From contig CBDCJV010000002.1 of the NCBI GenBank assembly GCA_965217895.1, forward strand, positions 3,168,001-3,232,000: a DNA stretch of 64,000 nt, in the 5' to 3' direction. Position 1 is the first letter of the stretch; each line of letters starts with the position of its first letter. The position numbers and the translations under genes are program-made. This DNA is from Waterburya sp. GTDB taxonomy: Bacteria > Cyanobacteriota > Cyanobacteriia > Cyanobacteriales > Xenococcaceae. The notes below the pieces were generated by a model that was given only the letters and a program-made list of their open reading frames with translations, had not been told where the DNA came from and did no database searches. This document shows, one piece after another, positions 17,702 to 35,444 of this stretch.

Positions 17702-18940
17702 CTAACTGCGCATTACCCGTTCAACAGTTTTAAGCTGTCGAATAAAAAGCATCGAACCAGCCAAACAAACTAAACCATTAAAAACAAAGGTATTAACTAC
17801 TCCAATCTGACTAGCCAGCCACCCAGAAAATAAATTGCCAAAGGGAACTACACCCATAAAAGCCATAGAAACTAGGCTCATTAATCTGCCTATTTTGTCA
17901 TCATCGACTATGGTTTGTATGACTGTATTGGTAGAAGCTAGCTGTAAAATGACGCTAAAGCCAATCAGCACCATAACTGGGAGAGAAAACAATAAAATAT
18001 TAGAGAAAGAGAAAATAATAAAGCCAGTTCCCAGTAGCATAGGCGCGATCGCGATCGCCTTTTCTAAACCATATATATGCGACCTAGAACTAAGATAAAC
18101 GCTGGCAATTAAAGCCCCCAGTGCCGAAGCACCCATCAGTAATCCTAAAGTCTGGGAATCGCCTTTAAGAATATCAGCAGCAAAAATGGGGATCAAAATT
18201 ACATAGGGTAAGCCGACAAAGCCTAGCAAGGATAGCAATAGCAGCATCGAACGAATTGCCGAATTGTTATAAGCATAGTCAAATCCTTCCCTCAGCTTTT
18301 GCATGGTGGAGGTAGTGCTAGAAGCAATCTTAGTTGCGGGAACTTTCATCACCAAAAAAGCAGCAATTACCGCTATATAACTAATGCCGTCAAGCAAAAA
18401 GCAAATGCCCGCACCGACGCTAGCCACTAAAAAACCAGCTACCGCCGGACCAATTAATCTGGCACTACTAATCAAAGATGAATTAAGGGCGATCGCATTT
18501 CCTAAATCTTCTGGCTGTTCGATAATTTCCTTAACAAAAGCCTGAAGTGTCGGCAAATACAGGGCGTTAACTATACCTTGGAAAACTGAAAGTGCGATAA
18601 TTTGCCAAACGTTGATTATGCCCGTCAAAGCCAATATTGCCAAGAGTAAAGACTGTACCATCGATAAAATCTGAGTGACAATTACAATTCGATGGCGCGA
18701 ACCGCGATCGGCAATTACCCCAGCTATGGGAGAAATAAATAAAGTAGGAATACGACTGGCAAACCCGACTACACCCAGTAGCCAAGCTGACTCGGTTAAT
18801 TGATAAACTAACCAACTAGTAGCCAGAATAGTACTCCAGTTACCAATCTGAGAAATCCCTTGACCAATAAAATAAAGACAATAATTTCGATAGCGAAAGG
18901 CACGTAAAATTGGCAGTTTTTTTTCAATTTTTAGCTTCAA
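17702..18940 (-). CDS. MFS exporter (EntS/MFS_3-like)
   Basis: RN..LYF.GQ.ISQ.G.W, G..ADR..R, LGNAIALNS...ARLIGPA.AG; about 12 hydrophobic segments. Confidence 0.88.
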   Translation of the reverse strand: MKLKIEKKLPILRAFRYRNYCLYFIGQGISQIGNWSTILATSWLVYQLTESAWLLGVVGFASRIPTLFISPIAGVIADRGSRHRIVIVTQILSMVQSLLLAILALTGIINVWQIIALSVFQGIVNALYLPTLQAFVKEIIEQPEDLGNAIALNSSLISSARLIGPAVAGFLVASVGAGICFLLDGISYIAVIAAFLVMKVPATKIASSTTSTMQKLREGFDYAYNNSAIRSMLLLLSLLGFVGLPYVILIPIFAADILKGDSQTLGLLMGASALGALIASVYLSSRSHIYGLEKAIAIAPMLLGTGFIIFSFSNILLFSLPVMVLIGFSVILQLASTNTVIQTIVDDDKIGRLMSLVSMAFMGVVPFGNLFSGWLASQIGVVNTFVFNGLVCLAGSMLFIRQLKTVERVMRS

Positions 18941-18991
18941 AAGTTTTATCCAGTTGGTTAATCAATTGCAGAAGCGGATTATGATAAACCT

Positions 18992-19891
18992 CTACAGCAT
19001 TAGAAATGTAATTAATTGCTGCCATTGGGTAAGATCGCCATTTTTATTAGCCAGAATTTGATTTAGATCGTCGAAATCTCGGTGAAGGCTGTCTTTCAAC
19101 TGACTAGCTTTCTGTTCATAAGCTCTAACCTGCTGAATATTTGACTCTCCCCGCAGTAGATATCGCCAGAAATAATCAAACAGATCTACTAATACTCGAA
19201 AAGGAAAAGGTGCATTGTCATAATCTAGACTAGCTAAATATGCTTCATATTCGCGATCCATCCCCCGAATGATTAAATACTCTAGATAGTTGAGTTTGAC
19301 AAAAGGGTTTTTAGGAAATTGCGCGAGTGCAGTCTGCATTATCTCTAAAGATTTCTCTGTTTGCCCGTGTTTGAGCAGAAATAGAGCATAGCGTTTAATC
19401 GCCCAGGTGTAAGCAGGATTGAGGTCTAAAACCCGTTCGTAACAACTTTGTGCTGCCTCTGTCCGTTCGTATTTTTCCAGAAAATAGGCGTAGTGAGAAA
19501 GAGTCCAAAGATCTTTATCGTATCCGTCATTCAATGCTTGTTCGTACCATTTGGCAGCACGCTCCATCTGGAAATTTCTTTCGAGAATATAGGCATAGTA
19601 ATTTGCTCCCAAACGATCTTCTTGTAGCTTAAAAGCTTTATCTAAATGCCATAGAGCCAGACTGTAATTATAAATTTTGCCGTGACACTGACCGATTCCA
19701 AAATGATAATCAGAAACTTCTTGCTGTCTGAGTAAATAGCGATACAGAGACATTGCCACATTGTAAACATCTTCTTCTCTGAGAAAATCTGCTACCTCAG
19801 TTACAGTTTCCAAAGGATACTGCTGATGATTATCCAAAATTTGCTGATATTCTTTCTCGCGGGCTAATTCCAGTAATTTATTGTTAGTCAT
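18992..19891 (-). CDS. tetratricopeptide repeat protein
   Basis: repeated YA..L...A...YE..L...P helical pattern. Confidence 0.8.
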   Translation of the reverse strand: MTNNKLLELAREKEYQQILDNHQQYPLETVTEVADFLREEDVYNVAMSLYRYLLRQQEVSDYHFGIGQCHGKIYNYSLALWHLDKAFKLQEDRLGANYYAYILERNFQMERAAKWYEQALNDGYDKDLWTLSHYAYFLEKYERTEAAQSCYERVLDLNPAYTWAIKRYALFLLKHGQTEKSLEIMQTALAQFPKNPFVKLNYLEYLIIRGMDREYEAYLASLDYDNAPFPFRVLVDLFDYFWRYLLRGESNIQQVRAYEQKASQLKDSLHRDFDDLNQILANKNGDLTQWQQLITFLML

Positions 19892-19893
19892 TG

Positions 19894-19938
19894 GTTATTA
19901 GTTATTAGTTATTAGTTATTGGTTGTTAGTTATTAGTT
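19894..19938. repeat. heptamer tandem repeat (TTATTAG)n
   Basis: about 6 imperfect copies; similar heptamer tracts near 21320, 43510, 62700 and 63620. Confidence 0.8.
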
Positions 19939-19939
19939 G

Positions 19940-21298
19940 TTATTTCTCCTGCTCCCTACTGCCTAGCCAAAAAGGATTAACTCCCCGTTCGGCTAATACT
20001 GTCCAGGCGGTTGCACCAACATGAAGGCTGCGAAAATAAAGCCAGGGATTACCATCAGGCTGAACAAAACCCGTGGTCAAGGTGGTTTTATTGGTAGTGG
20101 GCATTCCACCTGATGGCTCTTGTCCAGCTTCAAGCATTGCCAAGACAGCCTCAGCTTTTCGGGGTTGATTTGTTGCTTGATATGCCAATGCCATTTGTGC
20201 CGTACCTTCGTACCAAATACCGTCCCTGTCTTGGTTAAAATCAAAACCCCCTGCAACTTTGTGATGCTGTTCGGCATATTCAAGACATTGCCAATAGGGT
20301 TTAGAGGTTGTTTTTAAAGCCAAAGGTGTCCAGGCTTGGGCATCTAAAGGAATGACTTCTCGGTAAATAGTGGCTCCATCGTCTTCTGTTCCCGTCCAAA
20401 AGTTGCCCGCGTCGCTATTCCACATAGCAAAGACAAACTGTTGAGCATAATTGGCTCGTTCTTGCCAAGCGGGTTCTTTGGTAAGCAGATAAAGTCGTGT
20501 AAAAGCTGCATAGAGATCGAGGTTGTGTTCGGTAGACTTGTAGCTCAACTTTGTTTGTTGCCCTTCCCAACCTGTGTAGCCTCCTGTATAGCCCCCCGCA
20601 CCCCTTAAATCGCGACAGTTTTGTTCGATCCACTGCCCAAGGGCGATCGCCGATTCTAAATATTCTTCTCCTCCATAGCTTTGGTAATATCCTAGTAATG
20701 CCAGCATTGCCCAGGCAACGTTGCCCGTATGAGTACTAACGTTAAACTCGTTTTCTTGCCAGCTTTTAGTAGACTCGTCATATTTGCCAGGAAGTAAAAA
20801 AGAAGTTGAGTCAGGATCAAATTTGCCTCCCTTGTAAGCATTGCGAATTCGTCCATCATGAAAAAAGCGATCGCCTTTTTGGGCTGCGACTAGAGTATTG
20901 ACTATTTGTTTGGCTCGTTCTCGGTCATCCGAAGCGATAAAAGCCAAAGCAGCAACGGCATTGTCATAGGTAAAAGCTACCTTTTGGGAAATCGAATCGA
21001 ACTCAGGACTGTTATCAATTGCTGCATAGCTAACCATAAAACCAAAGTCTTTTTTGCTGCTATCTTTACTGCTATTCTTATCAGTTTGGGTTGTTGTCAA
21101 AGAGCGATCAAATACTTCTGCTAGATAGCTATAGCTGTTGTTTTTTACTGTGGAATCAACAGAAAAATTATCGAAACCTATTAAAACAGTAATTGTAATT
21201 AAAACCAGACAAGAAAATTGAATAAGCCAGTGCGATCGCTTATAAATAGATTTTTGGAAATTATTAGTTAATAAAAACATTATTAAGTACCCAAACAA
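19940..21298 (-). CDS. membrane-anchored/secreted glycosidase-like protein, probable (alpha/alpha)6 fold
   Basis: N-terminal TM helix; YDNA.A..A, GN.AW...AL, STEHN.D.YA.F, W.EGTAQ..LA, H..ATAW motifs; follows the GT2 gene. Confidence 0.6.
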   Translation of the reverse strand: MFGYLIMFLLTNNFQKSIYKRSHWLIQFSCLVLITITVLIGFDNFSVDSTVKNNSYSYLAEVFDRSLTTTQTDKNSSKDSSKKDFGFMVSYAAIDNSPEFDSISQKVAFTYDNAVAALAFIASDDRERAKQIVNTLVAAQKGDRFFHDGRIRNAYKGGKFDPDSTSFLLPGKYDESTKSWQENEFNVSTHTGNVAWAMLALLGYYQSYGGEEYLESAIALGQWIEQNCRDLRGAGGYTGGYTGWEGQQTKLSYKSTEHNLDLYAAFTRLYLLTKEPAWQERANYAQQFVFAMWNSDAGNFWTGTEDDGATIYREVIPLDAQAWTPLALKTTSKPYWQCLEYAEQHHKVAGGFDFNQDRDGIWYEGTAQMALAYQATNQPRKAEAVLAMLEAGQEPSGGMPTTNKTTLTTGFVQPDGNPWLYFRSLHVGATAWTVLAERGVNPFWLGSREQEK

Positions 21299-21415: not shown

Positions 21416-23590
21416 CTAATTATTAAAATTTCTAGTTAAAGGATAAATACGAAAGATTGAACTAATCAAAGACCAGACAGATTTAACCTCACTGATTGAT
21501 TGTTTTTGCCATCGATTTGGTTGACCAAAAATAAAGCTAACTAATTTTCTTTGTTTACTCAGATCTAATTCAACAAAATCGATTTCTGCTAATAAGTTGC
21601 TTTGTCGATCTAAATTAACTTTGTCGATTGAAACAGGAGCATTAAATAAACCAATCTCAGGAATGTTTAAAGTAGCAATTCGCTCTACAGCATTTAAAGA
21701 AGTGAGATTGTTAATATTAAAAAAAGTTGTTGCGCCATGCTCAGATAAGCTTTTGGTAGTGCCGTCAAGTATTCTATCCTCGAACGTTAGTTGACAATTT
21801 AGCTGACAGGGAAAGCGAATTGCTAAAACTTTTTGGGGTACGTCGATCGCAATCAAGATTGCAATAAATAAAATGGCGGTGTTATAAATAGCCCAAAACA
21901 AACCAATACCAACTGAATCTAAATCTTGTTGCCATTGCCAGTTAAGAAACTGAGTGCCAATAGTTACTAAATAAAGCAGAAACAAGATTATTAAAGGGCT
22001 GGCAGCCTGCCAATTTAAGACGGCTTTTTTTGAGAATACTCCTTTAGGAGTGACTTTAAAACCTTTACCAAAAGGATTAATTAAAGTATTGATCACCATA
22101 AAAGCGATGGGAAAGGCAATAATTGCTCCATATACTTCCGCCCAAAAAAACGAACGTCTGCTACCATTTAGCCAAGCGAAAACTACGGCAAAAGTAAAGT
22201 AATAAGGCATAAAAAAGAACAGCAGTTCGCTAAAGCTAGCTTGAATAGGTGCAATTCCCCACCAAAAGTACCCTAGAGGTAAACACAGAAAAACGACATA
22301 GGCAGCAGATTGAAACCAGTAGAGAATGCCCAAGCCGTGAATAAAACGCTGTAACCAGTTCAAACCTGGCAAGATAAAAGGATTAGCTCGACAAAATAAA
22401 GTTTGAATCGTTCCCTGTCCCCAACGTAAACGCTGATCGATATAGCCACCAATATTTTCCGCTGCTAGTCCTGCTGAGAGAGATTCATTTAGATAAATAA
22501 CGCGATCGCCTATTGCCTGAATCTTGAGAGAGGTTACAAAGTCTTCAGTCAAAGTTTCGGTGGGAATACCGCCGATCTTGTCTAAAACTCGACGACGCAC
22601 CACGAAAGAAGAACCACAGCAGATAACTGAATTAGCTGCATCACGACCTGAGAGAATCGCCCCAAAAAAGATATCTTCGTCGTTGGTAATAACGCTTTGC
22701 AAGCCCAAATTATGTCGGATGGGGTCGCTATTGTAGTAGGCTTTGTTGGTTTGTACCAGAGCAATATCTGACTGTTGAAAAAAGCCAATGGTGCGGGTCA
22801 GAAAGTTGCGTGTAGGAATAAAGTCGCAGTCAAATACGGCTACTAATTCGCCCTGGATTTGTCCTAAAGCGTGGTTAATATTACCTGCTTTAGCGTGACG
22901 GTTATCGGGACGAGTAATATAATAACAGCCCAATTCTTGAGCCAAATCTCTCATTTCCCGTCGGCGCAGATCATCAAGGAGATAAATTCGTTTGTGGGCA
23001 TAGTCCATTCCCTGACAGCCAATAATTGTTCGGCGCAGCATAGCAGCAGGCTCGTTATAGGTAGGGACGAGAACATCTATCCAGGGAGTATATTCCCCTT
23101 GCAATACAGCTTGGGATCTAAAATCTGCCTCGATAGCGCGATCGCGTTCAAAAACAGCCAATAACAGCGAAGAAATACCCAAAATCCAGCCTAAAATCTC
23201 TAAAATTAACAGAAAAATACTGAGGGTGCCGTTGAGCAAGTTATCTAAATTGAGGGTGGCAAACAGTCGCCATAAAAAATAGCGTCCTAACAACAATAGC
23301 AAAATGCCCATTACTATCAATCGTAACCATTTTGGCGGATTTACTGGATATAGCTGAATAATGAGAAAAGTAACTGCAACCCCGACCAAACTAGGTAAAA
23401 TCAGAGAACTGGTTTCAGGTGCAACGCTGCCAAAAGTTAGCTGACTACCCTGCCAAAAACTAGACAATTCGGCAGTTGTTCCCCACCAATTTATTTTTGT
23501 CAACAGCAGAAACAAAATTCCTCCTGTCGCCGTAACTACTATTCCCTGTTCGATCAATGTCCACCAACTAGCTTTTAGTTTATTTGCCAC
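21416..23590 (-). CDS. cellulose-synthase-like processive GT2 (BcsA/XcsA-like) with degenerate PilZ domain
   Basis: PTYNEP, LLDD, HAKAGN, FDCD, TED, QRLRW, F.VTPKG motifs; multiple TM helices. Confidence 0.9.
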   Translation of the reverse strand: MANKLKASWWTLIEQGIVVTATGGILFLLLTKINWWGTTAELSSFWQGSQLTFGSVAPETSSLILPSLVGVAVTFLIIQLYPVNPPKWLRLIVMGILLLLLGRYFLWRLFATLNLDNLLNGTLSIFLLILEILGWILGISSLLLAVFERDRAIEADFRSQAVLQGEYTPWIDVLVPTYNEPAAMLRRTIIGCQGMDYAHKRIYLLDDLRRREMRDLAQELGCYYITRPDNRHAKAGNINHALGQIQGELVAVFDCDFIPTRNFLTRTIGFFQQSDIALVQTNKAYYNSDPIRHNLGLQSVITNDEDIFFGAILSGRDAANSVICCGSSFVVRRRVLDKIGGIPTETLTEDFVTSLKIQAIGDRVIYLNESLSAGLAAENIGGYIDQRLRWGQGTIQTLFCRANPFILPGLNWLQRFIHGLGILYWFQSAAYVVFLCLPLGYFWWGIAPIQASFSELLFFFMPYYFTFAVVFAWLNGSRRSFFWAEVYGAIIAFPIAFMVINTLINPFGKGFKVTPKGVFSKKAVLNWQAASPLIILFLLYLVTIGTQFLNWQWQQDLDSVGIGLFWAIYNTAILFIAILIAIDVPQKVLAIRFPCQLNCQLTFEDRILDGTTKSLSEHGATTFFNINNLTSLNAVERIATLNIPEIGLFNAPVSIDKVNLDRQSNLLAEIDFVELDLSKQRKLVSFIFGQPNRWQKQSISEVKSVWSLISSIFRIYPLTRNFNN

Positions 23591-24929
23591 CGAACAATCC
23601 CCCTCTTATGTCACGTTTAAAAACTACTTCCGCACTACGTCCTACATCACAGAACTGTGTCGAATTAGCCTCAAGCGGTCGATCTAGCTTTACTCTTACT
23701 GCTACCTGACGGCGGACGCTATCTGGTGGCGGTACGGCAATATCTCCTCCTGTTTGAATCCGTCCCGAACCTGCCCGAACCGACTCAACTTTTCCACTGA
23801 CCAAATCACCATTTTCTGCACCCAATAAACGCACCTTGACAGGTTTACCTGGATAAATTTTTCCTGCATCCTGCTCGGAGAAAAAGGCTTCTACCCAAAG
23901 GTTTTGACAGTTTAATACCTCCAAAATGGGAACACTCGCTTCAGCGTATTCGCCCGATTTCGATTCCACCGACCAAATAGGACCACTGGTGGGACTAGGA
24001 ATCTTGGCCTGTTGATTGAGTGACAACTGGCGATCTATTTCAACTAATTCGGCCTCAGTAGTTTGCTGGCGCACCCTTGCTTCAGCAAGCTGCTGCTGCA
24101 TATCATTGATGTCAGTACTAAGTTCTCGCTGACGAATCTCTGAATATCCCAAAGTACGAGAACCTTCTAACTGTAATCCTGCTTGGGCTGCTTTTGCCTT
24201 TTGTTTGGCTTGGTTTACTTGCAATCGCGCATTTTTTACTTCGTTTTGAGCGCGATTAAAATTCAACTGAGATCTTTCTAACTTATCTTGAGAAAACACC
24301 CCCTGTTTAGCTAAATTAGTGATGCGTTCTAGCTCTTTTTTAGCAGTATTGGCAGCAAATAAAGCTCGATCTAGCTGATTTTTAGCAATATCTATTTGTT
24401 GATCTTCATAGTTCACTCCCAAGTCTTGTTGAGTGTTAGCTTCCTGCTCTAATTTAGCGATCGCTTTACGGCGATCGCCAATTTGCGCTTCAACACCAAG
24501 TACAGTTTGTTTTGCCTGTTCGATCTGGGAAATAAGACTTTGCTTGGTTACTTCAAGTTCACTGCTTTGACGTAAATTTTTTACCGTACCAATGTTTTCC
24601 CCGACAGAAATAGACTGACCTGGCTGGAGATTTTTTAGCTGTAAATTACCAGCAAGAGGATTGCGAACTTTGACAATTTCGGCATTAATAAATGCCTGAC
24701 GACTACGCACATTTGAATAGTTCTGCTGTACCATAAGTCCAACTGCTGTGGCTACACCCAATGCCATCACTAAACGTAAAGCTCGAAATGCTTTTACCCG
24801 CACAGGAACTGATGCAGGTGGTAGAGGTTTGTATTGAACCAGAGGTAGTTTCTCTAATCTGGTTAGAGATGTTTTAGATTCTGGTTCGGGCAATTCGGGT
24901 AATTTATTGGCTGATTTACGATTGGACAA
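23580..24929 (-). CDS. HlyD-family membrane fusion/periplasmic adaptor protein
   Basis: N-terminal TM, split lipoyl halves (V.NP..G / I.SP..G) around a long coiled coil; overlaps the GT2 start. Confidence 0.88.
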   Translation of the reverse strand: MSNRKSANKLPELPEPESKTSLTRLEKLPLVQYKPLPPASVPVRVKAFRALRLVMALGVATAVGLMVQQNYSNVRSRQAFINAEIVKVRNPLAGNLQLKNLQPGQSISVGENIGTVKNLRQSSELEVTKQSLISQIEQAKQTVLGVEAQIGDRRKAIAKLEQEANTQQDLGVNYEDQQIDIAKNQLDRALFAANTAKKELERITNLAKQGVFSQDKLERSQLNFNRAQNEVKNARLQVNQAKQKAKAAQAGLQLEGSRTLGYSEIRQRELSTDINDMQQQLAEARVRQQTTEAELVEIDRQLSLNQQAKIPSPTSGPIWSVESKSGEYAEASVPILEVLNCQNLWVEAFFSEQDAGKIYPGKPVKVRLLGAENGDLVSGKVESVRAGSGRIQTGGDIAVPPPDSVRRQVAVRVKLDRPLEANSTQFCDVGRSAEVVFKRDIRGGLFGGK

Positions 24930-24974: not shown

Positions 24975-25991
24975 TTAGGCGATCGCAACCCGATTGGAAG
25001 GTGTATCCTCTCCTGTAGCTGATTTAGCAAAACAATTGTGAGCATCAAAAAACTTTAGTTGTCGATAGAGCATTGATACTTGGGGCATCTGTATCCCTAC
25101 CTGCCAAGCCGTTCGTAAGGGATTACCAAAAATAGCCTCTACTTCAAGCGATCGCCCTTGATTAAAATCGATTTTCATGCTGGTTTCATAGTCTTTCATC
25201 GCTGCACTTTGTTTAATTCGTTTTTGAACGAACACTTCGGGAATATAGCGACCATAAGCCTTGGCTGCGGTAACTATTTCCGCCATTAACTGTTCGATAG
25301 AAGTGCGAACGTGAGCGTTATTAAACATTTCTTGATTGGTAGAATTCAAAACCACCGAAAGACCATTAACAGGGATATTGCAGATTAGCTTTTGCCAACG
25401 AGCCAAAAATAAGTCTTCATGTAGCTGAATCATCACATCAGCTAGAGCAAAGTCGGCTGCAATCTGACACATTCTGCTACTGACTCCCGCAGCACGATAG
25501 CCAGGAACATAATCTGCTAAGGTAATCAAACCATAGTCGAGATGACGAATATGTCCTGGTGCGATCTTATAGTTCAGAGTAAAACAAACGCCTCCCATCA
25601 CGCGATCGCTACCTATAATCTCAGCAATCTCCTCTTCCATACCCCAGCCATTTTGCAGCACCAGCACCACGCCGTTATTTTTAAGAACTTGAGGCAAGAT
25701 TTGGGGCAGTAAATGATTACTGGTAGTTTTGAGAGCAACAATAACTACATCACAAGGAGGCATCTGGCTAGCGTTGTTGTAAGCTCGAACAGAAGGTAAA
25801 GTAAAATCGCCGTCGGGAGATTCAATAATCAATCCGTGTTGGCAAACGTGGCTAAAATCGCGATTTAACAGAAAATGTACGTCAAAGCCCGCTCTTTGTA
25901 AACAAGCACCGTAGAAAGCACCGATCGCTCCAGTGCCAATAATGGCGTAGCTACGACGGTCATCGGTCGTTGAGCATTTATCATTTATCAT
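24975..25991 (-). CDS. 2-dehydropantoate 2-reductase (ApbA/PanE)-family oxidoreductase
   Basis: IIGTGAIG..YG, LQNG.G.EE, W.KL..N...N, TSM..D...GR.LE.EAI. Confidence 0.9.
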   Translation of the reverse strand: MINDKCSTTDDRRSYAIIGTGAIGAFYGACLQRAGFDVHFLLNRDFSHVCQHGLIIESPDGDFTLPSVRAYNNASQMPPCDVVIVALKTTSNHLLPQILPQVLKNNGVVLVLQNGWGMEEEIAEIIGSDRVMGGVCFTLNYKIAPGHIRHLDYGLITLADYVPGYRAAGVSSRMCQIAADFALADVMIQLHEDLFLARWQKLICNIPVNGLSVVLNSTNQEMFNNAHVRTSIEQLMAEIVTAAKAYGRYIPEVFVQKRIKQSAAMKDYETSMKIDFNQGRSLEVEAIFGNPLRTAWQVGIQMPQVSMLYRQLKFFDAHNCFAKSATGEDTPSNRVAIA

Positions 25992-26872: not shown

Positions 26873-28252
26873 CTACTCCCTACTCTCCCGTACGCGCGAA
26901 CGGCCGTTCGCCCGTACTTCTGACTTCTCTTCAGATTCCATCACAATACTAGACAGCATCGTGTTCATCTTATTGACTGATTCAATATATTCTTTTTCGG
27001 GAACAGATTCGCCGACGATTCCCGCCCCAGCATTAAGATACACGCTGTCACCATATTGATATGCCGAACGAATGGCGATCGCAATATCTGCCGTACCGTC
27101 GCTATCTACCCAGCCAATGCCACCTGCATAGAGTCCTCTGGGTCGATCTTCAAGGCGATCAATCCACTCCAAAGCCAGTTTTTTATTAATTCCTGAAACG
27201 GTAATCCCAGGAAATAGCACCTTCAAAGCATCCCACAGAGATTTGTCAGTTTTAAGCTGTCCGCCAACCCGCGAGGAAAGATGTTGAACGGTACGATATT
27301 TTTTAACTTCCATAAAGTCAAATACCTGTACGGTTTCTGGTTGACATACTTGCGTCACCTCTTTTTGAGCTAGCCAAACAGATAAAGCGTGTTCTTTAAC
27401 TTCTTTAGCATCGGTAAACAGTTCATCATGGAGCAAAGCATCTTTGGCGGGATCGGCTTCGCGATGTCTAGTTCCCGCTAAAGGATTAGTAATTACAAAT
27501 CCGCTAGCATTGACCTCCATCAAAATCTCAGGACTAAAACCAACCGAACGCACATCTCCTAACTTAAAACAGTAAGAACGAGCCGAGTTGTTGACCGCAG
27601 CACCCATGTTATAAGTACCCAGTACGTCTAAGTTGCCTTTGACTTCTACTGAACGAGAGATAATTGCCTTGTGTAATTCGCCCCGTTGAATTGCCGAAAC
27701 TAGATCGCCGACTCTTGACTCATATTCTTGGTTGTCCCCTGGTTCTGCCTTTGGCGGGGTTACTTGATATTCTGGCTGTTGAACTTCAACAGATATTGCC
27801 TCTAATAGTTTCGAGGGAGAATTGATGCTACGAATATGTACTCCTTTATCTGTAATTCGTAGCTCAATTTCTGGCACAAAAAAATAAAGCATCGGCTGGG
27901 AGATCGCCTTTGAGTATGCCGAATAGAACCGAGCAATATCAAAACCGACATAGCCATAAGCCGTCCAATTTTCTACGGGTAGATGACTCAACACCGACTC
28001 TACCTGCTTGAGCGGATCGCTGACAGCTTCAGAATAAGTTTCACCTAAATAGTTACTGTAAATTGTGTCCGTTCCCACCGCCACATCAGCCAAGGGATTA
28101 GCAACAATACGCACCTCGTTTTCCTGCTCATACAGCATATAGTCAGTGAATATATCGGCTGCGATCGCATTCCTCAGCAGCATCTGAGGGTCAGTTTTAC
28201 CTGGAACAAAGACTTCGTGATAGGTCTGTAAATTATCGGCTAGTAAATACAT
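26873..28252 (-). CDS. salicylate synthase (Irp9/MbtI-like chorismate-utilising enzyme)
   Basis: GFSPE, TNPLAGTR, D.KEV.EH..SV, VQHL.S.V.G, LFP.IT.SGI.K, RGLY.G, AGAGI. Confidence 0.88.
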   Translation of the reverse strand: MYLLADNLQTYHEVFVPGKTDPQMLLRNAIAADIFTDYMLYEQENEVRIVANPLADVAVGTDTIYSNYLGETYSEAVSDPLKQVESVLSHLPVENWTAYGYVGFDIARFYSAYSKAISQPMLYFFVPEIELRITDKGVHIRSINSPSKLLEAISVEVQQPEYQVTPPKAEPGDNQEYESRVGDLVSAIQRGELHKAIISRSVEVKGNLDVLGTYNMGAAVNNSARSYCFKLGDVRSVGFSPEILMEVNASGFVITNPLAGTRHREADPAKDALLHDELFTDAKEVKEHALSVWLAQKEVTQVCQPETVQVFDFMEVKKYRTVQHLSSRVGGQLKTDKSLWDALKVLFPGITVSGINKKLALEWIDRLEDRPRGLYAGGIGWVDSDGTADIAIAIRSAYQYGDSVYLNAGAGIVGESVPEKEYIESVNKMNTMLSSIVMESEEKSEVRANGRSRVRESRE

Positions 28253-28290: not shown

Positions 28291-28785
28291 TTAAACGGCA
28301 ACTGTTTGTGGTTTTGATTCTTCGGCAGTCCAAGCTTCAACTGCTTCTTTAATTGCCTGCATCTGAACTTTTGTATTGCGATTGAGAAATGACTCCATTT
28401 TTTCTACTGCCCATGCGCCTTCTGCTGGTGCAAATTTCTGCTCCCAGGTCATGACTGTACCGACGTTTTGCGGTAGCTCCTCATAAGTCCAGTAGATTTT
28501 CATCATCTCAAATGGAAAAGCCTGCTTGACTCGTTGCGCTTCGGCTTTTTTGCCAGGCTTATCGATGATGCGAGTCGAAACCCAAGTGCGAGAAGGATGA
28601 TCCTCTTCGGGAAAAGTAGTCAGTTGAAACGTTACTTTGTTGCCGTCTCTTTCTAAAACTTTGGCTTCTTCATACTCAGTAAATAGCTGAGGCCATAGTT
28701 CGATATTATTAGTCAAATCAAAAACGGTATCAAAGTCTTTGAGGATGACAATGGTATTGTGAGTGTATCCAGGTAATTCTGACAT
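28291..28785 (-). CDS. SRPBCC polyketide aromatase/cyclase (TcmN/WhiE-VI-like)
   Basis: WPQLFTEY....VL, W.S.R, PF..M.I.W.Y, M.W.Q.F, NT..QM motifs. Confidence 0.9.
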   Translation of the reverse strand: MSELPGYTHNTIVILKDFDTVFDLTNNIELWPQLFTEYEEAKVLERDGNKVTFQLTTFPEEDHPSRTWVSTRIIDKPGKKAEAQRVKQAFPFEMMKIYWTYEELPQNVGTVMTWEQKFAPAEGAWAVEKMESFLNRNTKVQMQAIKEAVEAWTAEESKPQTVAV

Positions 28786-28850: not shown

Positions 28851-28878
28851 GTACGGGCGATTCGCGAATCGCCCGTAC
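28851..28878. repeat. 28-bp perfect palindrome, REP-like
   Basis: gtacgggcgattcgcgaatcgcccgtac; variants at 26890-26917 and 30427-30454. Confidence 0.85.
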
Positions 28879-28913: not shown

Positions 28914-29699
28914 TTAGGGAACTATTCCTACCGCCCGAACCCAGCTAGCGTCTAGGTCTTTGATCTTTAAAGGAAAACAGGATACCTGAAAGCCCGTAGA
29001 GGGCAAACTATCTAAATTTGCTAGGCGTTCGATCTGGATGTATTCTCGTTCTCGTCCGTAAAAGTGTGCCGGCCAAAGGTTAGCGCGATCGCCTGTTTCC
29101 CAGAAGTCTTCGAGCATGGTTACAAAGGGGCGATCGAATCCATAGGTATCGATGCCGATCACTTTAATTCCCTGTTTTACCAGCCATTCGGTAGCCTCAC
29201 GGCTCATCCCAGGAGCGTCGCTAAAGTATTCCCGTTTGCCCCACAGCTTATCTGTTCCCGTCCAAAGTAAAACTATGTCTAAAGGTTTTAGTTCGTGTTG
29301 GGCTTGCTGGAGAGCGTTTTGAATATCCTCAACGGTGATAAATTCTCCCGCTTTTTTATGAGTTAAATCTAAACGAACTCCAGGACGATAAAACCAATCT
29401 AGAGGGAGAAGGTCTACGCTGCGAGCGGGTTGACCTTCACTCTCCACACCATAGTGAATTGGTGCATCAATATGAGTACCCATGTGGGTGGGTAAGGTTA
29501 CCGTATCGAGGGTAATAAAAGCGCGATCGGGAAAATCTTCTACCCCTAGGCGACGAGGATCGGATTTAGCTTGGTTACGAGCTTCTACCTTGCCGCAAAA
29601 CTCCTTTGCCCCTCGATAATGATCCAGTCGGTCTACCTTTATTTCTAAAGGTTCAGAAACCGAATTTTCGACTAAGACACTAAGATCGACTAGCTGCAC
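28914..29699 (-). CDS. metal-dependent cyclase family protein (kynurenine-formamidase-like polyketide cyclase)
   Basis: H.GTH.DAP.HYG, IG.D..GFD.PF, LWPAH..GR..EY.QIERLANL, FP.K....A.W.RA; probable GTG start at 29699 (VQLVDLS). Confidence 0.88.
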   Translation of the reverse strand: MQLVDLSVLVENSVSEPLEIKVDRLDHYRGAKEFCGKVEARNQAKSDPRRLGVEDFPDRAFITLDTVTLPTHMGTHIDAPIHYGVESEGQPARSVDLLPLDWFYRPGVRLDLTHKKAGEFITVEDIQNALQQAQHELKPLDIVLLWTGTDKLWGKREYFSDAPGMSREATEWLVKQGIKVIGIDTYGFDRPFVTMLEDFWETGDRANLWPAHFYGREREYIQIERLANLDSLPSTGFQVSCFPLKIKDLDASWVRAVGIVP

Positions 29700-30015
29700 T
29701 TTCAGTTTGCTCCTGTTTCTGCATATATGCCTCAATGTGGATCATTGCTTCATCGAGAGCCAAGTTAGTATCGGTAATGCCGACAATTGGTAGGGCTAGT
29801 AAGATAGCTGCAATGATTTCTTCTTTAGTCGCCCCTTCTTCCATCGCTCGTTCGACGTGGGTATTAATACCTCGTAGACCACGATGAGCAGCAAAAATGC
29901 CTAAGATGATTAATTCATTGGTTTTCATCCCCAAGGGAGAATATTCTCTGGCAGATTTAGCTAGATCGAAAAAGCTTTGAGCCACTTCGGGGGCTTCTTT
30001 CATCATGTTTTTCAT
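29680..30015 (-). CDS. carboxymuconolactone decarboxylase/AhpD-like protein (no CxxC)
   Basis: L..K..ELI, H..RA...GAT.EEI pattern. Confidence 0.8.
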   Translation of the reverse strand: MKNMMKEAPEVAQSFFDLAKSAREYSPLGMKTNELIILGIFAAHRGLRGINTHVERAMEEGATKEEIIAAILLALPIVGITDTNLALDEAMIHIEAYMQKQEQTESAASRS

Positions 30016-30417
30016 TTAATTTTCTCCTTGTTCTAAAATAATGTGTCCTTCTTTGGGTGATGGTGCTAAAGGGCCAGAGGCAAAAACCACCACAATTTCT
30101 TCCTCGCCAACGTTGTAAATAGAGTGAGCCTTTCCTTGGGGAGTCAGCACTGCCTGACCCGCCTGGAAATTCACGTCTCCCACACCTTCGACTACAATTT
30201 TTCCTTGACCTTGCAAGACATAAAAGCATTCTTCACTGTGGGGATGGGCATGGTTTAAAACTTTCCCGCCAACGGGGACGGTTGCTGTTCCCATGATCAT
30301 TTTGGTTGAGCCAACGCTGGTAGGAGAAATCAGAACATGAATCTGACCGCCTCGGTCTTCGATAGTAGCAACGTCTTCTGGACCCATTGCTAGCTTTTGG
30401 TTTTGAACTGTAGTCAT
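30016..30417 (-). CDS. cupin-fold polyketide cyclase (TcmJ/WhiE-II-like)
   Basis: RGG....L.SP.SVG, H.HP.SEE..YV..G, H...N.G, PLAP.P..GH motifs. Confidence 0.88.
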   Translation of the reverse strand: MTTVQNQKLAMGPEDVATIEDRGGQIHVLISPTSVGSTKMIMGTATVPVGGKVLNHAHPHSEECFYVLQGQGKIVVEGVGDVNFQAGQAVLTPQGKAHSIYNVGEEEIVVVFASGPLAPSPKEGHIILEQGEN

Positions 30418-30469: not shown

Positions 30470-32026
30470 TTAATTTTTCTGCACAAGCTGACGAGCTTTG
30501 AGCAAGGCTTGACGATGAATCTTTCCCGTTGAGGTGCGGGGTAGCTGGTCTAAAAAGTGAATTGCTTTTGGAGCTTTAAAGCTGGGTAAATTAGCACGAA
30601 CTAATTTACGCAAACTGTCTTTTAATCGCCCTGACTCTTCAAAACCAGATTTGAGACTGATATATGCCACTGCCTGAGTTAGATTCTGTCCGCCACCAGA
30701 TTCGGGAACAACAGCTGCATCTAAAACCGCTTCGTGTTGAAGTAAAATATCTTCAATTTCAAAGGGAGATACCCACTTACCACTGACTTTAAACAAATCA
30801 TCTTTGCGTCCCATGAAAAAGAAATAACCATCTTCATCGCAGATATATTTGTCTCCAGTCCGCATCGTATTACCATAGATAACCTCTCGCGTTTGCTGGT
30901 GGCGATTCCAGTATTGCAGCATCAGACTTGCTCCCCCGACCTGGAGATTGCCAATTTCGCCTTTAGATAGGTCAAAACCGCGATCGTCTACAATCCGCAC
31001 ATCATAACCAGGAACTGGCTTACCGCAGCTACCAGGACGACATTCTCCTACACGATTAGATAAAAAAATATGCAGAAATTCACTCGTGCCAATGCCTTCG
31101 CAGATCTCAAGATCAAAGCGATCGCGCCATTTATGCCAGATACTTTTAGGTAGCTGTTCGGCTGCTGAAAGACACAGCCTCAAGGAACTAGTATCTAAAG
31201 GCGCAATTTCTTGTACTGCCCAAATCCCTGAATAAATTGCAGGAATGGCAAATAAAACCGTCGGTCGATAGCGATTAATATCGGCAATGATATCAAAAAC
31301 ATTATTGGCATCAGTCAATACCGCAGCAGCCCCAACCGCCATCGGCATATATAAAGTGTTGCCCAAACCATAGGCAAAGGGCATTTTGGCTACTGAATAG
31401 ACAATATCGTCTTGATTCAAACCAATAGTTGCCCGTGCATACTCTTCGGCGCACATTGCCATGCTGCGATGCAGGTGAACCACACCTTTTGGTTTACCCG
31501 TACTGCCAGAAGTATAAAGCCAGAATGCTGGTTCGTCTGGGGAAGTACGGGCTGGATTGGGGACATGATTTATTTGACTAGATCTTTGGGTAAAAGAAGT
31601 TTCGCCATCGGTAATAATGGTTTGACGTAAAAACTCAGAGTTATTTAGAGATAGTTTACTTTGCCAGTCTTGATTAGTAATTAAAATCTTTGCCCGACAG
31701 TCTTGCACAATATATTGAATATCTTCAATCGTACAGGCGGTATTAATCGGCACTGGTACTGCCCCCATCCAGATTGCCCCCCAAAAAGCAAAGACAAATT
31801 CAGGACTATCGCTTAGCAAGATAGCAACACGATTTTCTCGTTCTAAGCCCAGTTCGGACAGTAGTGCTGCTGCTTGGCAAACTTCCTCATTAACTTTGCG
31901 ACAGCTATAGGCTAGATCTTGATAGTAGAAAGCAATTCGTTCGCCATCTTCTTGGACAAGACTAGACTTAAGAAAGTAAGCTGCAACATTAAAGATTTCA
32001 GGCAGTTGTTTATAGGGTAGATTCAT
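30470..32026 (-). CDS. benzoate-CoA ligase family aryl-acid adenylating enzyme (probable salicylate ligase)
   Basis: FWLYTSGSTG.PKG, K..FAYGLGN, GIGT.E.LHIFLSN, TGD, LP.T.TGKI. Confidence 0.9.
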   Translation of the reverse strand: MNLPYKQLPEIFNVAAYFLKSSLVQEDGERIAFYYQDLAYSCRKVNEEVCQAAALLSELGLERENRVAILLSDSPEFVFAFWGAIWMGAVPVPINTACTIEDIQYIVQDCRAKILITNQDWQSKLSLNNSEFLRQTIITDGETSFTQRSSQINHVPNPARTSPDEPAFWLYTSGSTGKPKGVVHLHRSMAMCAEEYARATIGLNQDDIVYSVAKMPFAYGLGNTLYMPMAVGAAAVLTDANNVFDIIADINRYRPTVLFAIPAIYSGIWAVQEIAPLDTSSLRLCLSAAEQLPKSIWHKWRDRFDLEICEGIGTSEFLHIFLSNRVGECRPGSCGKPVPGYDVRIVDDRGFDLSKGEIGNLQVGGASLMLQYWNRHQQTREVIYGNTMRTGDKYICDEDGYFFFMGRKDDLFKVSGKWVSPFEIEDILLQHEAVLDAAVVPESGGGQNLTQAVAYISLKSGFEESGRLKDSLRKLVRANLPSFKAPKAIHFLDQLPRTSTGKIHRQALLKARQLVQKN

Positions 32027-32047: not shown

Positions 32048-32416
32048 TCAGCTAGCCAGGACGTGAACTAATACATAATCATTACAGCTTGACCAGCTAG
32101 CAATCCAATTGGTGTAACCTAGTCTGGCTGCCTGCAATTTGGCTTTACCATAAAGCTTGATGCTTAACTGAAAGTCCGAGACGATCGCTTCTATTTCGTG
32201 CCAGTCAATACCTGCTAATCCAGTTCCTAAAGCTTTGCCGACTGCTTCTTTGGTAGCAAAGCAAACAGCGAAGCTTTGATAGGGTTGTTTAGCTGACTGA
32301 CAGCGATCGATTTCGTCTAAGGTAAATAGTAAATTTAAGGTTTCTCGATCATAGCGATCGATTAACTGTTTAATTCTTTCAACAGAAGCAATGTCAACGC
32401 CAATTCCCATACCCAT
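32048..32416 (-). CDS. acpS: holo-ACP synthase (AcpS-type PPTase); start uncertain (ATG 32416 or GTG 32479)
   Basis: GIGVDI....RI, FT..E, FA.KEA..KALGTG motifs. Confidence 0.88.
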   Translation of the reverse strand: MGMGIGVDIASVERIKQLIDRYDRETLNLLFTLDEIDRCQSAKQPYQSFAVCFATKEAVGKALGTGLAGIDWHEIEAIVSDFQLSIKLYGKAKLQAARLGYTNWIASWSSCNDYVLVHVLAS

Positions 32417-32492: not shown

Positions 32493-32798
32493 CTATTTCG
32501 GTTGAACAGGGTGCGCGGTTTGAGGCATGGCTGGCATTGTATTTTCAACATAATTACTGTCTGGAGAGTTAGACTGGTCAACGGCTTGAACGATTTTTTC
32601 ACTGATCTGTGCCAGAGTCATATCCTGACGGGACTCTAGCTTGATGTTGATTCCCAAACGTCGTTTGAGTCCTAAAGAAATATCAACGGTTTCGGTAGAA
32701 TCTAGCTGTAGGTCTTGACGAATCGAAGCTGTATCAGTAAGTTCTGCTTCTTCAAAACCTAAATCGATCAGAACATCTTTGAGTGCTGAATTTATCAT
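32493..32798 (-). CDS. acyl carrier protein
   Basis: acidic small protein with DL.LDS(TE) phosphopantetheine site, directly after the CLF. Confidence 0.88.
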   Translation of the reverse strand: MINSALKDVLIDLGFEEAELTDTASIRQDLQLDSTETVDISLGLKRRLGINIKLESRQDMTLAQISEKIVQAVDQSNSPDSNYVENTMPAMPQTAHPVQPK

Positions 32799-32844: not shown

Positions 32845-34056
32845 TTACTTACTAATAACGAAAGAAGCGTTAACCCCTTCGCGAGCGCGAGAATTGACTA
32901 GAGTTCGGGCAACTGAACTCGATTGAGCTTGGGTAACAAAATTTAGCTGGCAATCGGCTTCGGCATTGACTGACTGCATAACGGGTAGTTTGCCAGTTTC
33001 CATCGCCATCAGGCTACAGGCGACTTCGGTAGTACAGCTAGCACCGTAAAGATGACCAAACAGCGATTTGGGTACGGTAACGGGAACATCTGGAGCGTCG
33101 GCAAAGACTCCTTGAATAGCCTCTGCCTCTAGGCGATCGCCTGTTTTGGTACCGCAACCCTCGGCAAACACGACATCAATATCTCGAGCAGCTAAATTGG
33201 CATCTTTTAAGGCTTTATTCATTGCCCGTTTAAATTGAATTCCTTCTGTAGGATTAGTATCAGTAGTCATACTACCCGAAGTTACTTCGCCATAAATTTT
33301 TGCTCCTCGTGCTAGGGCGTGTTCTTCTGACTCTAAAACTAAAACCGTACTGCCTTCCCCTAGAACAATGCCCGATCGCCCTTTGTCAAAAGGCTGATAG
33401 GCTGTACGAGGATCTGCTGCACCGCTAATTTCCCCTGTTTCGTAGTAGCAAACCATGCCAAAGCGGGTAATGGGAGCTTCCGAGCCTCCTGTAAGCACAA
33501 CATCGTTATGCCCCTGCTGGATCGACTTAACGCCAAAGTAAAGACCACTAGCACCGCTAGCGCGATCGCAAACAAAGCTTTTGCTGTAGCCTCGAATACC
33601 ATAGCGAATGGTGACGTAACCCTGGGCAGCAGTCGGAAACCAAGCTGTAGCCTGCCAGGGATTCACCATGGCTGCGCCATCGTTATATAGCTCTTTAAAA
33701 CCACGTTCGCAGATATCCCAACCCCCAGCGTTGTTGCCAAACCAAACCCCAACCCGATAGGAATCTTCTGTTTCTAGATCTAGATTGGCATCTGCCAAAG
33801 CTAGATCGCTAGCTGCTAGGGCATAATGGGTAAAGCGATCGGTTTTGACCACCAAACGACGAGGAATAAAATCATCGGGCTTAAAATCCTGAATTGTTCC
33901 CGCCACTTTGGTTGGGAAGTTAGTCGGATCGAAGCGATCTATTTCACCAATTGCCGACTTACCCTCGGTCATATTTTGCCAGAATTGTTCTTTGCCAATG
34001 CCCGATGGATTAACAATTCCAATTCCCGTAACAACTACCCGTTTTTTATCCGTCAT
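32845..34056 (-). CDS. type II PKS chain-length factor (KS-beta)
   Basis: KS fold, TDRFTHYAL, AWF, VPVTVPK motifs; catalytic Cys and first His absent (VCDRASG, FAEG). Confidence 0.9.
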   Translation of the reverse strand: MTDKKRVVVTGIGIVNPSGIGKEQFWQNMTEGKSAIGEIDRFDPTNFPTKVAGTIQDFKPDDFIPRRLVVKTDRFTHYALAASDLALADANLDLETEDSYRVGVWFGNNAGGWDICERGFKELYNDGAAMVNPWQATAWFPTAAQGYVTIRYGIRGYSKSFVCDRASGASGLYFGVKSIQQGHNDVVLTGGSEAPITRFGMVCYYETGEISGAADPRTAYQPFDKGRSGIVLGEGSTVLVLESEEHALARGAKIYGEVTSGSMTTDTNPTEGIQFKRAMNKALKDANLAARDIDVVFAEGCGTKTGDRLEAEAIQGVFADAPDVPVTVPKSLFGHLYGASCTTEVACSLMAMETGKLPVMQSVNAEADCQLNFVTQAQSSSVARTLVNSRAREGVNASFVISK

Positions 34057-34092
34057 CTTTGCACTAAATAATGTTGATTTTATTTTTCTGTC

Positions 34093-34154
34093 GGGTGGGC
34101 AAAATTCCTTTCATCTTGATCCAAAAACCTGAATTTTTGGCTTGCCCACCCTAC
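34093..34154. repeat. REP-like palindromic element between KS-alpha and KS-beta
   Basis: gggtgggcaa...ttgcccaccctac. Confidence 0.75.
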
Positions 34155-34166
34155 GATTGAAATGCA

Positions 34167-35444
34167 CTACGCTGCTAATTCTTCTGGCTTCACCTTTCGC
34201 AAAATTGCAGCCGAATGAATACCGCCAAAACCAGAGGCTGTTAACATAGCGGTGTTAACCTCCTGTTCTCTAGCAACGTTGGGAACATAATCCAAATCGC
34301 ACACAGGATCGGCAAATTCATAGTTAGCAGTAGGATGAATTGTTGAAAGCTCGATCGCTCCCAAGGTGGCAACTACGCCAACTAAACTGGCTGAAGAAAG
34401 AGAGTGTCCAATCATCGATTTAGTAGAACTAATCGGCACTCGGTACGCTTTGTCTCCCAACACTGTCTTATAGGCATTGGTTTCAAAAACGTCATTTTGC
34501 GGAGTAGAACTACCATGAGCGTTGATGTAGTCGAGTTCTTCTGGGGCAACTTTACCCGACTCCAAAACCTTCCTCACCACAGCAGCCATCGGAATACCGT
34601 GATCGGGTAAGTCAGTCATGTGGAAAGCATTGCTGACGCTAGAGTAGCTAACTACCTCTGCATATATATGCGCTCCCCTGGCTTGGGCATGTTCCAACTC
34701 TTCTAATATTAAAACCGCAGCAGCTTCGCCAATTACAAAGCCAGCTCGCTTGACATCAAAAGGACGAGAAGCTTTTTCGGGTTCGCAGTCGGCTACGGAC
34801 AGAGAGCCGATTACGTCTAAAGTAGCGTAGGTCAAGCTTGTTAAAGGTGCTTCGGTTGCTCCTGCCATCATGATGTTCATTTCGCCAGATTGAATTAGCT
34901 CAAAACTCAATCCCAGAGCATCTAAACCCGCAGTACAGCCAGTAGAAAGAGAGGTACAGTGACCCTGTAAATTATACTTGCGTGCCAGCAAAGCAGCAGA
35001 GTAATTAAACATACCTGCATTATAGAAATTTTCTCCCGTTTCCACGTAGCTAATTTCTTCCGTGCCTCTATTAGTACACTGCTCGTAAATCTTCTGAATA
35101 TAGGGAGTTCCACCAATTGCCGAAGAAAATATCGTTCCCAACATTTCTGAGTCTTCTTGGTTGAGATCGATACCTGAATCTTCCCAAGCCATTGTTCCCG
35201 CACATACGCCAAACTGAACCACTCGATCCTGTTCTAAAAGGTGTTCAAATTCAGTCCCCGAACAATGGTTCGACAGGTCGAAATCTAAAACTCGGCACAA
35301 AACATTACTTTTGATGCCCATCGCCTCCATTTCAGAATCGGCGGTCAGAAAGGACTCTCCCCTAATGGCGTTTTTCCAAAACTGTTCTTTGCCAATTCCT
35401 AGTGGAGCGATCGTTCCAATGCCTGTAATTACAACTCGTTTCAT
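34167..35444 (-). CDS. type II PKS ketosynthase alpha
   Basis: STGCTAGLDA (Cys), YINAHGSST.QND (His), KSMIGHSL (His), ASGFGG, NAFHMT motifs characteristic of aromatic PKS KS-alpha. Confidence 0.93.
   Translation of the reverse strand: MKRVVITGIGTIAPLGIGKEQFWKNAIRGESFLTADSEMEAMGIKSNVLCRVLDFDLSNHCSGTEFEHLLEQDRVVQFGVCAGTMAWEDSGIDLNQEDSEMLGTIFSSAIGGTPYIQKIYEQCTNRGTEEISYVETGENFYNAGMFNYSAALLARKYNLQGHCTSLSTGCTAGLDALGLSFELIQSGEMNIMMAGATEAPLTSLTYATLDVIGSLSVADCEPEKASRPFDVKRAGFVIGEAAAVLILEELEHAQARGAHIYAEVVSYSSVSNAFHMTDLPDHGIPMAAVVRKVLESGKVAPEELDYINAHGSSTPQNDVFETNAYKTVLGDKAYRVPISSTKSMIGHSLSSASLVGVVATLGAIELSTIHPTANYEFADPVCDLDYVPNVAREQEVNTAMLTASGFGGIHSAAILRKVKPEELAA

Follow-up and report, generated by a model that had tools for sequence, protein, structure and literature searches.

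A gloPKS-orthologous aromatic polyketide cluster with a nested, optional glucan cassette in Waterburya sp., and its possible relation to the sheath pigment gloeocapsin

The 64,000-nucleotide stretch of Waterburya sp. analysed here (hereafter the window; assembly GCA_965217895.1, contig CBDCJV010000002.1, forward-strand positions 3,168,001 to 3,232,000) contains a run of 17 open reading frames (ORFs), all on the minus strand, which begins with the ketosynthase (KS) of a type II polyketide synthase (PKS) at 35444 and ends with an MFS transporter at 17702 (Table 1). Intergenic distances within the run range from -110 to +128 bp. Three genes near its end, encoding an HlyD-like protein, a BcsA-like glucan synthase (GT2) and a six-hairpin barrel protein, form a cassette nested among the polyketide genes. 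On balance, we read the window as the core of a cluster orthologous to gloPKS of Gloeocapsa PCC 7428; its product is likely an O-methylated polyaromatic quinone, likely exported to the sheath and most plausibly gloeocapsin or a relative of it, the three-gene cassette being accessory and likely co-expressed.

A previous sequence-only reading of this DNA had given the coordinates and order of the 17 ORFs, a 45-bp gap that we measured between panE and hlyD, and an overlap between hlyD and the GT2 gene (11 bp), all of which agree with our analysis. The gene order is identical in 5 further genomes, and positions 24929-24975 are spanned by contigs of two public runs, both from one sample that may be the source of the assembly. 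The ATG at 32416 is the probable start of AcpS; it gives a predicted protein of 122 aa with a full ACPS domain, and the 110-bp overlap between the acyl carrier protein (ACP) and AcpS genes may therefore be an artefact of ORF calling. Several gene names had to be revised. The “reductase” belongs to the PanE/ApbA ketopantoate-reductase family (above the NF004887 cut-off) and not to the short-chain dehydrogenase/reductase (SDR) polyketide ketoreductases; 12 of its 14 matches in the window's family (>=76% identity) fall in carriers of the PKS locus, and a housekeeping role was rejected because 47 of the 61 family genomes gave no match. Of the cyclases described as whiE/tcm-type, the aromatase is clearly of the TcmN type, but the second is a PF04199 protein with a kynurenine-formamidase fold rather than a TcmI-type cyclase (no Pfam match to the TcmI family was found among the 17 proteins of the run). 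The “glycosidase-like” gene has no cellulase Pfam match and encodes the unclassified barrel. The cluster is also larger than had been proposed, as a divergent second fabD belongs to it and tailoring and export genes lie outside the window.

Table 1. Genes of the polyketide core and the glucan cassette, with window positions, strand and basis of the assignment
Feature	Position	Strand	Basis
FabD malonyl-CoA:ACP transacylase, second copy	36743..37657	+	TIGR00128 above cut-off
MTHFR-like gene, decayed 5' remnant	35524..35666	-	Alignment score 99 vs shuffle maximum 34 (200 shuffles)
Ketosynthase KS-alpha	34167..35444	-	Catalytic Cys in TGCTAG
Chain-length factor	32845..34056	-	Arg at Cys position, FVCDRASG
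ACP	32493..32798	-	LQLDSTET; Q31 and T35 as in gloACP
AcpS-type phosphopantetheinyl transferase	32048..32416	-	PF01648
Aryl (salicylate) adenylating ligase	30470..32026	-	TIGR02262 benzoate-CoA ligase family, 503 bits vs cut-off 375
Cupin, possible cyclase	30016..30417	-	PF07883; weak match to tetracenomycin synthesis proteins, E 3e-4
CMD/AhpD-like protein	29680..30015	-	PF02627
PF04199 metal-dependent cyclase	28914..29735	-	Family scan
TcmN-type monodomain aromatase/cyclase, SRPBCC	28291..28785	-	PDB matches to polyketide cyclases and TcmN, E 3e-30 to 1e-26
Salicylate synthase	26873..28252	-	TIGR03494, 351 bits vs cut-off 325
Alpha/beta hydrolase (GQSLG), likely chain release	25988..26785	-	Family scan and motif
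PanE-family reductase, cluster-specific	24975..25991	-	NF004887
HlyD-like membrane fusion protein, accessory cassette	23580..24929	-	PF13437
BcsA-like processive glucan synthase GT2, accessory cassette	21416..23590	-	D,D,D,QRLRW intact
Unclassified (alpha/alpha)6 six-hairpin barrel, N-terminal hydrophobic helix, accessory cassette	19940..21298	-	Predicted fold
TPR protein	18992..19891	-	Directly after panE or hydrolase where cassette missing
MFS transporter, EntS-like	17702..18940	-	PF05977

The hallmarks of an aromatic type II PKS are all present, namely a KS with the active-site Cys (TGCTAG) paired with a chain-length factor (CLF) that lacks it (its motif FVCDRASG is invariant across 19 loci), a discrete ACP with a phosphopantetheinyl transferase (PPTase), and an aromatase/cyclase. 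The ACP gave no Pfam match in the family scan and was recognised by LQLDSTET, which holds the phosphopantetheine Ser. The CLF is identical to that of Gloeocapsa PCC 7428 (WP_015191117) at 299 of 400 positions (75%), and both a salicylate synthase and an aryl ligase, each above its curated cut-off, are encoded in the cluster. As judged by sequence, the core is an orthologue of the salicyl-primed gloPKS of that strain.

For gloPKS it has been reported that in vitro the cognate ligase loads salicyl and C29 products form from 11 malonyl units, that the malonyl-only reaction turns yellow-orange, and that its KS-CLF, the orthologue of the window's, functions in E. coli and in vitro (bioRxiv 10.1101/2023.08.02.551649; PMC11744666); the gloACP mutants Q31G/T35L provide the residue numbering used here (bioRxiv 10.1101/2023.08.02.551649). 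gloPKS was likened to the thermorubin cluster of Laceyella sacchari, with which it shares a salicylate starter, 11 malonyl units and a C29 backbone; its in vivo output was called unclear, and the passages of these papers considered here draw no link to a sheath pigment (bioRxiv 10.1101/2023.08.02.551649; PMC11744666). The window and gloPKS have in common the CLF, the ACP residues Q31 and T35, and a cognate PPTase and salicylate ligase within the cluster; they differ in that the window's genus adds fabD, the MFS gene and the glucan cassette, that the window's clade has lost a methylenetetrahydrofolate reductase (MTHFR)-like gene, and that in the source genome the cluster is split in three places. 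The cyanobacterial cluster has an anthrone-oxygenase-like ABM protein, a P450, a Rieske oxygenase and tripartite exporters, which may distinguish it from the thermorubin cluster. With the unreduced whiE and tcm clusters the window shares the TcmN-type aromatase, the cupin, O-methyltransferases and the missing SDR ketoreductase, but it differs from them in its aryl starter and its PF04199 cyclase.

Some genes at the borders of the core could be assigned from relatives. The window's fabD (53% identity to another fabD of the same genome) has the same place upstream of the KS in relatives and is likely dedicated to the PKS. The MTHFR-like gene, which carries PF02219 in relatives, is intact before the KS in most other clusters, and an intact copy is missing from all five genomes of the window's clade. 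The TPR gene is a member of the PKS cluster and not of the cassette, because in loci that lack the cassette it follows panE or the hydrolase gene directly; the MFS gene is likewise retained in relatives of the genus without the cassette.

The pathway extends beyond the window. In Phormidesmis nigrescens ULC007, an HlyD match near the KS led to a flanking block with an HTH-NACHT regulator, an HlyD-ABC exporter, an ABM protein, two O-methyltransferases, a P450 and a Rieske oxygenase. Orthologues of this block lie in the source genome at C2:2525840-2538292 (P450, three O-methyltransferases, ABM, NACHT, Rieske and an NxxGxxAF propeller), and a DevBCA-TolC block lies at C2:1098368-1105647. In G453, G454, G447 and G429 the tailoring and export blocks adjoin the MFS end of the core, and in G453 the cluster is contiguous over about 42 kb from the P450 to fabD. 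The ABM gene was found in 11 of the 61 genomes of the window's family, all of them among the 12 carriers of the CLF (it is missing only in G438, which is 71% complete), in exactly those 5 genomes (of 90) of the ULC007 family that hold the CLF, and in all four of the carriers tested (of 7) in a second family; the Rieske gene occurs in 7 of the 61 genomes, all PKS carriers. ABM, O-methyltransferase and P450 genes recur in G568, G101, G442, G449 and G426. The matches of ABM in the PDB include anthrone monooxygenase and ActVA-Orf6, and several matches of the O-methyltransferases are aromatic-polyketide methyltransferases such as DnrK. A P450 gene inside the window (15502-16878) was rejected as a cluster gene since in relatives it is not a neighbour of the PKS and the tailoring step has a P450 gene of its own.

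Three further observations concern these blocks. The cluster, contiguous in four close relatives, is split in the source genome into three intact blocks at C2 1.10, 2.53 and 3.19 Mb. The propeller gene (NxxGxxAF/DUF7453 with RTX repeats; L204:14706-16292 in the source genome) accompanies the cluster in three families and possibly serves an extracellular step. In G426 (L201:5532-6782) a flavin halogenase-like gene within the export/tailoring block suggests a halogenated variant of the product.

From these genes a pathway can be proposed. The salicylate synthase would make salicylate, which the ligase would load on the ACP, and the KS-CLF would extend it by about 11 malonyl units to a C29 chain; both steps were observed in vitro for the orthologue gloPKS and are extrapolated to the window cluster. 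The chain would be unreduced, as the core is without an SDR ketoreductase, and it would be folded by the aromatase, the PF04199 cyclase and the cupin and released by the hydrolase. ABM may then oxidise the anthrone to a quinone, to be tailored by three O-methyltransferases, the P450 and the Rieske oxygenase, and the MTHFR-like gene of other clusters may feed the methyl supply. DevBCA-TolC would carry the product across both membranes. The glucan cassette may add a beta-glucan layer while the operon is on, the PKS persisting where it is missing.

The starter genes have a wider distribution than the core. A block of ACP, in part AcpS, ligase and salicylate synthase recurs in many cyanobacterial loci without KS-CLF (most of L009-L080), with about 55-68% identity for ligase and synthase and with distant ligase/KS matches downstream, which are likely NRPS/PKS-I genes (nonribosomal peptide synthetases or type I PKSs); by sequence comparison, the salicyl-priming block is a reusable module across cyanobacterial loci. 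This commonness of the starter module, together with the EntS-like MFS transporter and a ferric-reductase-like gene in several clusters, would fit a product that is a salicylate-capped metal chelator instead of a sunscreen. We consider a chelator highly improbable, given that the aromatase and ABM point to a fused quinone, that O-methylation would block the chelating phenols, and that no NRPS gene or TonB-dependent receptor was noticed in the mapped clusters (neither was searched by family).

Whole-genome searches confined the PKS to three families. The CLF was found in 12 of the 61 genomes of the window's family, 7 of the 28 Gloeocapsopsis-family genomes and 5 of the 90 in the family of ULC007 (ULC007 itself and 4 of 89 relatives), compared with 2 of 400 other genomes of the phylum and 2 of 38 families in a sample of 401 genomes of the order. 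Among 80 loci fetched by salicylate synthase, the KS-CLF core was present in 14, and 3 of those 14 also have HlyD, GT2 and the barrel.

Gloeocapsin has been reported from Gloeocapsa, Solentia and Phormidesmis nigrescens ULC007 (PMC10359912, PMC13213007), producers that fall in Chroococcidiopsidales, Chroococcales and Leptolyngbyales (PMC10359912). In the sources considered here its proposed nature is that of an anthraquinone resembling parietin, or else of a coumarin or flavonoid (PMC10359912); it is still called enigmatic, without structure or pathway, and has been proposed as a fossil biosignature (PMC10359912, PMC13213007). The genome of ULC007 (accession MPPI; PMC5313606) is by its matching accession our locus L013. 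Its genes from KS to TPR are open throughout, it has one KS/CLF pair among seven KS-domain matches, and no gene of the chalcone-synthase family (type III PKS) was found in it. The three families that carry the PKS correspond to the three gloeocapsin lineages, a comparison made at the family level only and based on genomes other than those of G. alpina, G. compacta and Solentia. Solentia presumably belongs to the order of the window's family. The suggestion of the sequence-only reading that the cluster makes a pigment thus gains support from the PKS in a gloeocapsin producer, but the tie between pigment and glucan does not. We tentatively put forward gloeocapsin or its precursor as the product, and it is about equally conceivable, though still short of probable, that gloeocapsin is a salicylate-primed, O-methylated, C29-derived quinone and as such an alternative to scytonemin.

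If our model holds, scytonemin provides a parallel, both compounds being aromatic sunscreens that form inside the cell and end up in the sheath. No homology of its cluster to that of the window was found. We found scyC in 1 of 17 PKS carriers tested (of the 24 CLF carriers found), in 4 of 10 non-carriers of the genus (taken from 27 for completeness, with G428 included on purpose) and in all 3 positive controls. Avoidance of scyC by PKS carriers is a trend only.

A number of points weigh against gloeocapsin as the product. The exclusion of scyC is a weak signal (the gene is in 1 of 11 carriers of the genus and in 4 of 10 non-carriers; p about 0.13 in a one-sided Fisher test, with kin that are not independent), a matched pigment phenotype is available for one carrier only (ULC007), and CLF homologues are named from metagenome-assembled genomes of Rhizonema and Allocoleopsis, outside the three lineages. 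The exporters differ among lineages, so that homology does not settle where the product ends up. For a further carrier, Gloeocapsopsis crepidinum LEGE 06123, the published description gives hyaline sheaths under culture (PMC8295473), and the carrier strain BRSZ is described merely as yellowish after ultraviolet (UV) exposure (PMC12967839). A thermorubin-like antibiotic fits the genes as well. Thermorubin, the closest characterised pathway, reportedly yields an antibiotic, and the cluster might make a similar antibiotic or allelochemical that is exported to the medium, its presence in a gloeocapsin producer being a coincidence. The published likening to thermorubin with its C29 backbone, the several exporters (including MFS pumps), the carrier with hyaline sheaths and the halogenase-like gene of another carrier all suit an antibiotic. 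We nevertheless hold it to be somewhat unlikely, because the chance of ULC007 carrying the PKS is about 4 in 89 within its family, because the carrier families match the gloeocapsin lineages, and because ULC007 has neither another KS/CLF pair nor a type III PKS.

The nested cassette can be separated from the polyketide genes. The GT2 protein has the D,D,D,QXXRW signature (as QRLRW) and matches BcsA structures at E 1e-85. Cyclic di-GMP (c-di-GMP) binding by PilZ domains involves the motifs RxxxR and DxSxxG; in the GT2 no PilZ Pfam match was found, and QKVLAIRF and SLSEHG stand at the two sites. For the third protein, AlphaFold gives a model with a pLDDT of 89, the best structural match of which (Z 32.3, rmsd 2.8, 320 aligned) has 12% identity; identity to all listed structures is 9-18%, all within the six-hairpin sugar-enzyme fold. 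Weak matches of 45 family members are to GH127, GlcNAc 2-epimerase and GH76, and GH8 did not appear among the best fold matches, though membership in it is still conceivable. We are confident that the model represents an unclassified (alpha/alpha)6 six-hairpin barrel, to which no solved structure is closely related. The barrel family yielded 1141 matches, automatically named methylaspartate ammonia-lyase, and in loci L107-L186 its short forms sit with HlyD and GT2 while the long forms are fused to other domains.

The pairing of a BcsA-like GT2 with an adjacent HlyD-like adaptor, without BcsB or BcsC, is also described for XcsAB(C)-TolC (PMC12430437) and BgsBA-TolC (PMC13438883), and the order of hlyD before GT2 is that of bgsBA in the mixed-linkage glucan system (PMC13438883). 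The trio of the window departs from these systems by its degenerate PilZ-type motifs, its six-hairpin third gene and its nesting in a PKS operon. The assignment to XcsABC in the sequence-only reading therefore holds for the GT2 motifs and the neighbouring HlyD, but not for the PilZ motifs, nor is the third gene a proven XcsC; by analogy the cassette may work like an XcsAB or BgsBA module, and its membership in XcsABC is that of a candidate only. The window's HlyD was considered as a polyketide exporter and judged unlikely to be one, as a DevB-type adaptor travels with the tailoring genes.

The trio is an accessory glucan cassette, optional to the PKS. The barrel gene and the GT2 orthologue occur in 7 of the 61 family genomes, and 6 of the 12 PKS carriers of the family hold cassette and PKS intact. 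The other 6 CLF carriers gave no match to the cassette: in G101, G426, G449 and G450 panE stands directly before the TPR gene, and the loci of G441 and G438 stop at contig edges and are uninformative. The seventh cassette genome, G428, has deletions both in the PKS core and across GT2 and barrel; at its locus (L095) we also observed that a deletion has fused MTHFR to KS, along with a transposase-like ORF (family not scanned) and a truncated salicylate synthase, with no ABM orthologue and with scyC present. In G449 a scar of the 5' end of hlyD is left (score 57 versus a shuffle maximum of 28; 0 of 300 shuffles), and its core carries frameshifts, possibly sequencing errors. A match of G101 to the G442 cassette (score 42) could not be placed and was not counted as a scar. 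In the core tree (built with FastTree) the cassette occurs in two clades that have cassette-free sisters. Synonymous divergence (dS) of the cassette between the two clades is 1.05-1.31, compared with 0.80-1.41 for core genes, and its dN/dS of 0.12-0.27 indicates purifying selection. Given the scar and the tree, the simplest reading is a single arrival of the cassette between panE and the TPR gene in the genus, followed by three or more losses; independent insertions into the two clades were judged unlikely in view of the single site, the matching dS and the scar.

The linkage of PKS and glucan genes emphasised in the sequence-only reading thus stands in so far as the trio is nested in an aromatic PKS run and co-inherited with it, but it is not general, no cassette having been found in 6 of the family's 12 carriers (two of them uninformative). 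The sequence-only reading went further and proposed one obligate system, in which the HlyD/GT2 glucan module would serve the polyketide as scaffold or export route, carrying or anchoring it. In favour of this one may cite that the cassette lies inside the cluster in six genomes under purifying selection, and that in the 61 family genomes it was never found off the PKS locus, both parts being damaged together in G428. A comparable arrangement exists in the second family, where 5 of 7 carriers have a polysaccharide locus of another kind (wecG-wzc) immediately after panE, against a background of 1.4-3.1% of the source genome near such genes; this adjacency is probably one event. In detail, at L008, L188, L190, L191 and L192 the cluster runs co-directionally into a wecG-wzc-wzy-type locus, and a convergent wzc locus stands behind the MFS gene in G101, G428 and G442. 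An obligate scaffold is nevertheless improbable. G101 and G426 have lost the cassette cleanly with the PKS intact; the trio was not seen at the PKS loci examined in the two other families; and ULC007 and four other carriers gave no match to the barrel gene (the genomes without a match were ULC007, LEGE 06123, ULC18, AN10, the L016 genome and G568; the source genome served as positive control). Conversely, other bacteria have the trio without any PKS (G095 and 7 of 80 metagenome loci), and no PKS gene was found in the 40 metagenome loci of at least 8 kb. The pathway comes with an exporter that belongs to it, either DevBCA-TolC or ABC-HlyD. Finally, gloeocapsin is described as solvent-extractable (PMC11156808), which speaks against covalent attachment to a glucan.

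At the other extreme, the cassette might be a pure passenger, a mobile three-gene glucan module with no functional tie to the PKS and perhaps with its own promoter. Its occurrence alone in G095 and the metagenome loci, its repeated loss, and a panE-hlyD gap that varies from 18 to 234 bp among carriers and keeps a conserved AT-rich motif would all agree with a passenger. Against it stand the retention under selection over a dS of about 1.2 at a single site and the finding of no intact cassette in any PKS-free genome of the family. Neither a consensus promoter or terminator nor a stable hairpin (z +0.97) was found in the gap, which is uninformative on co-transcription; promoter and terminator scans gave matches at chance level (30 versus 38.5 expected; 19 versus 19.4), and such scans are weak. 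We regard a pure passenger as possible but doubtful. That the GT2 orthologue in the family is restricted to the PKS locus (7 of 61) and was part-deleted in G428 together with the PKS core speaks against a merely optional cassette and hints at more than a passenger. The stronger proposal, that a gloeocapsin cluster was twice placed beside polysaccharide machinery (the glucan-synthase cassette in the window's genus, a Wzy/Wzc locus in Gloeocapsa/Gloeocapsopsis) so that pigment and matrix are made together, we consider unlikely.

Several other elements of the window were recorded beside the cluster. A short plus-strand protein (36052-36558) with a match to the Type ISP C-terminal domain is kept between KS and fabD across the genus, and an OlsC/LpxO-like lipid hydroxylase gene (37712-38476, minus strand; below cut-off) adjoins fabD in the window's clade. 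Between cyclase and aromatase lies a perfect 28-bp palindrome (28851-28878, z -3.4) with similar copies at at least 5 other sites of the genome, a dispersed repeat that could shape transcript stability. A joint in contigs of the two runs (one sample) skips 26917-28850, that is, the aromatase and most of the salicylate synthase; it was not trusted as a real deletion because one side comprises only 22 letters.

The minimal PKS has already been published, and the full cluster, the nested cassette and the gloeocapsin link are apparently new. In the literature surveyed we found neither a link of a type II PKS to gloeocapsin nor a description of the full cluster or the nested cassette; the primary pigment and thermorubin papers lie outside this survey and could anticipate part of this. 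Gloeocapsin is, according to the sources considered, one of two long-recognised extracellular UV pigments of cyanobacteria, a third having been reported in 2026. The candidate cluster makes its origin directly testable, as a series of formulas and a precursor for labelling, salicylate, follow from it, and an axenic gloeocapsin producer strain carries it. The glucan cassette would add an uncharacterised six-hairpin enzyme family and a synthase that, from its motifs, may not need c-di-GMP. If the proposal is true, gloPKS would gain a natural product, the pigment could be dated and surveyed by means of a marker gene, and the known ways to aromatic quinones would include a further, cyanobacterial one.

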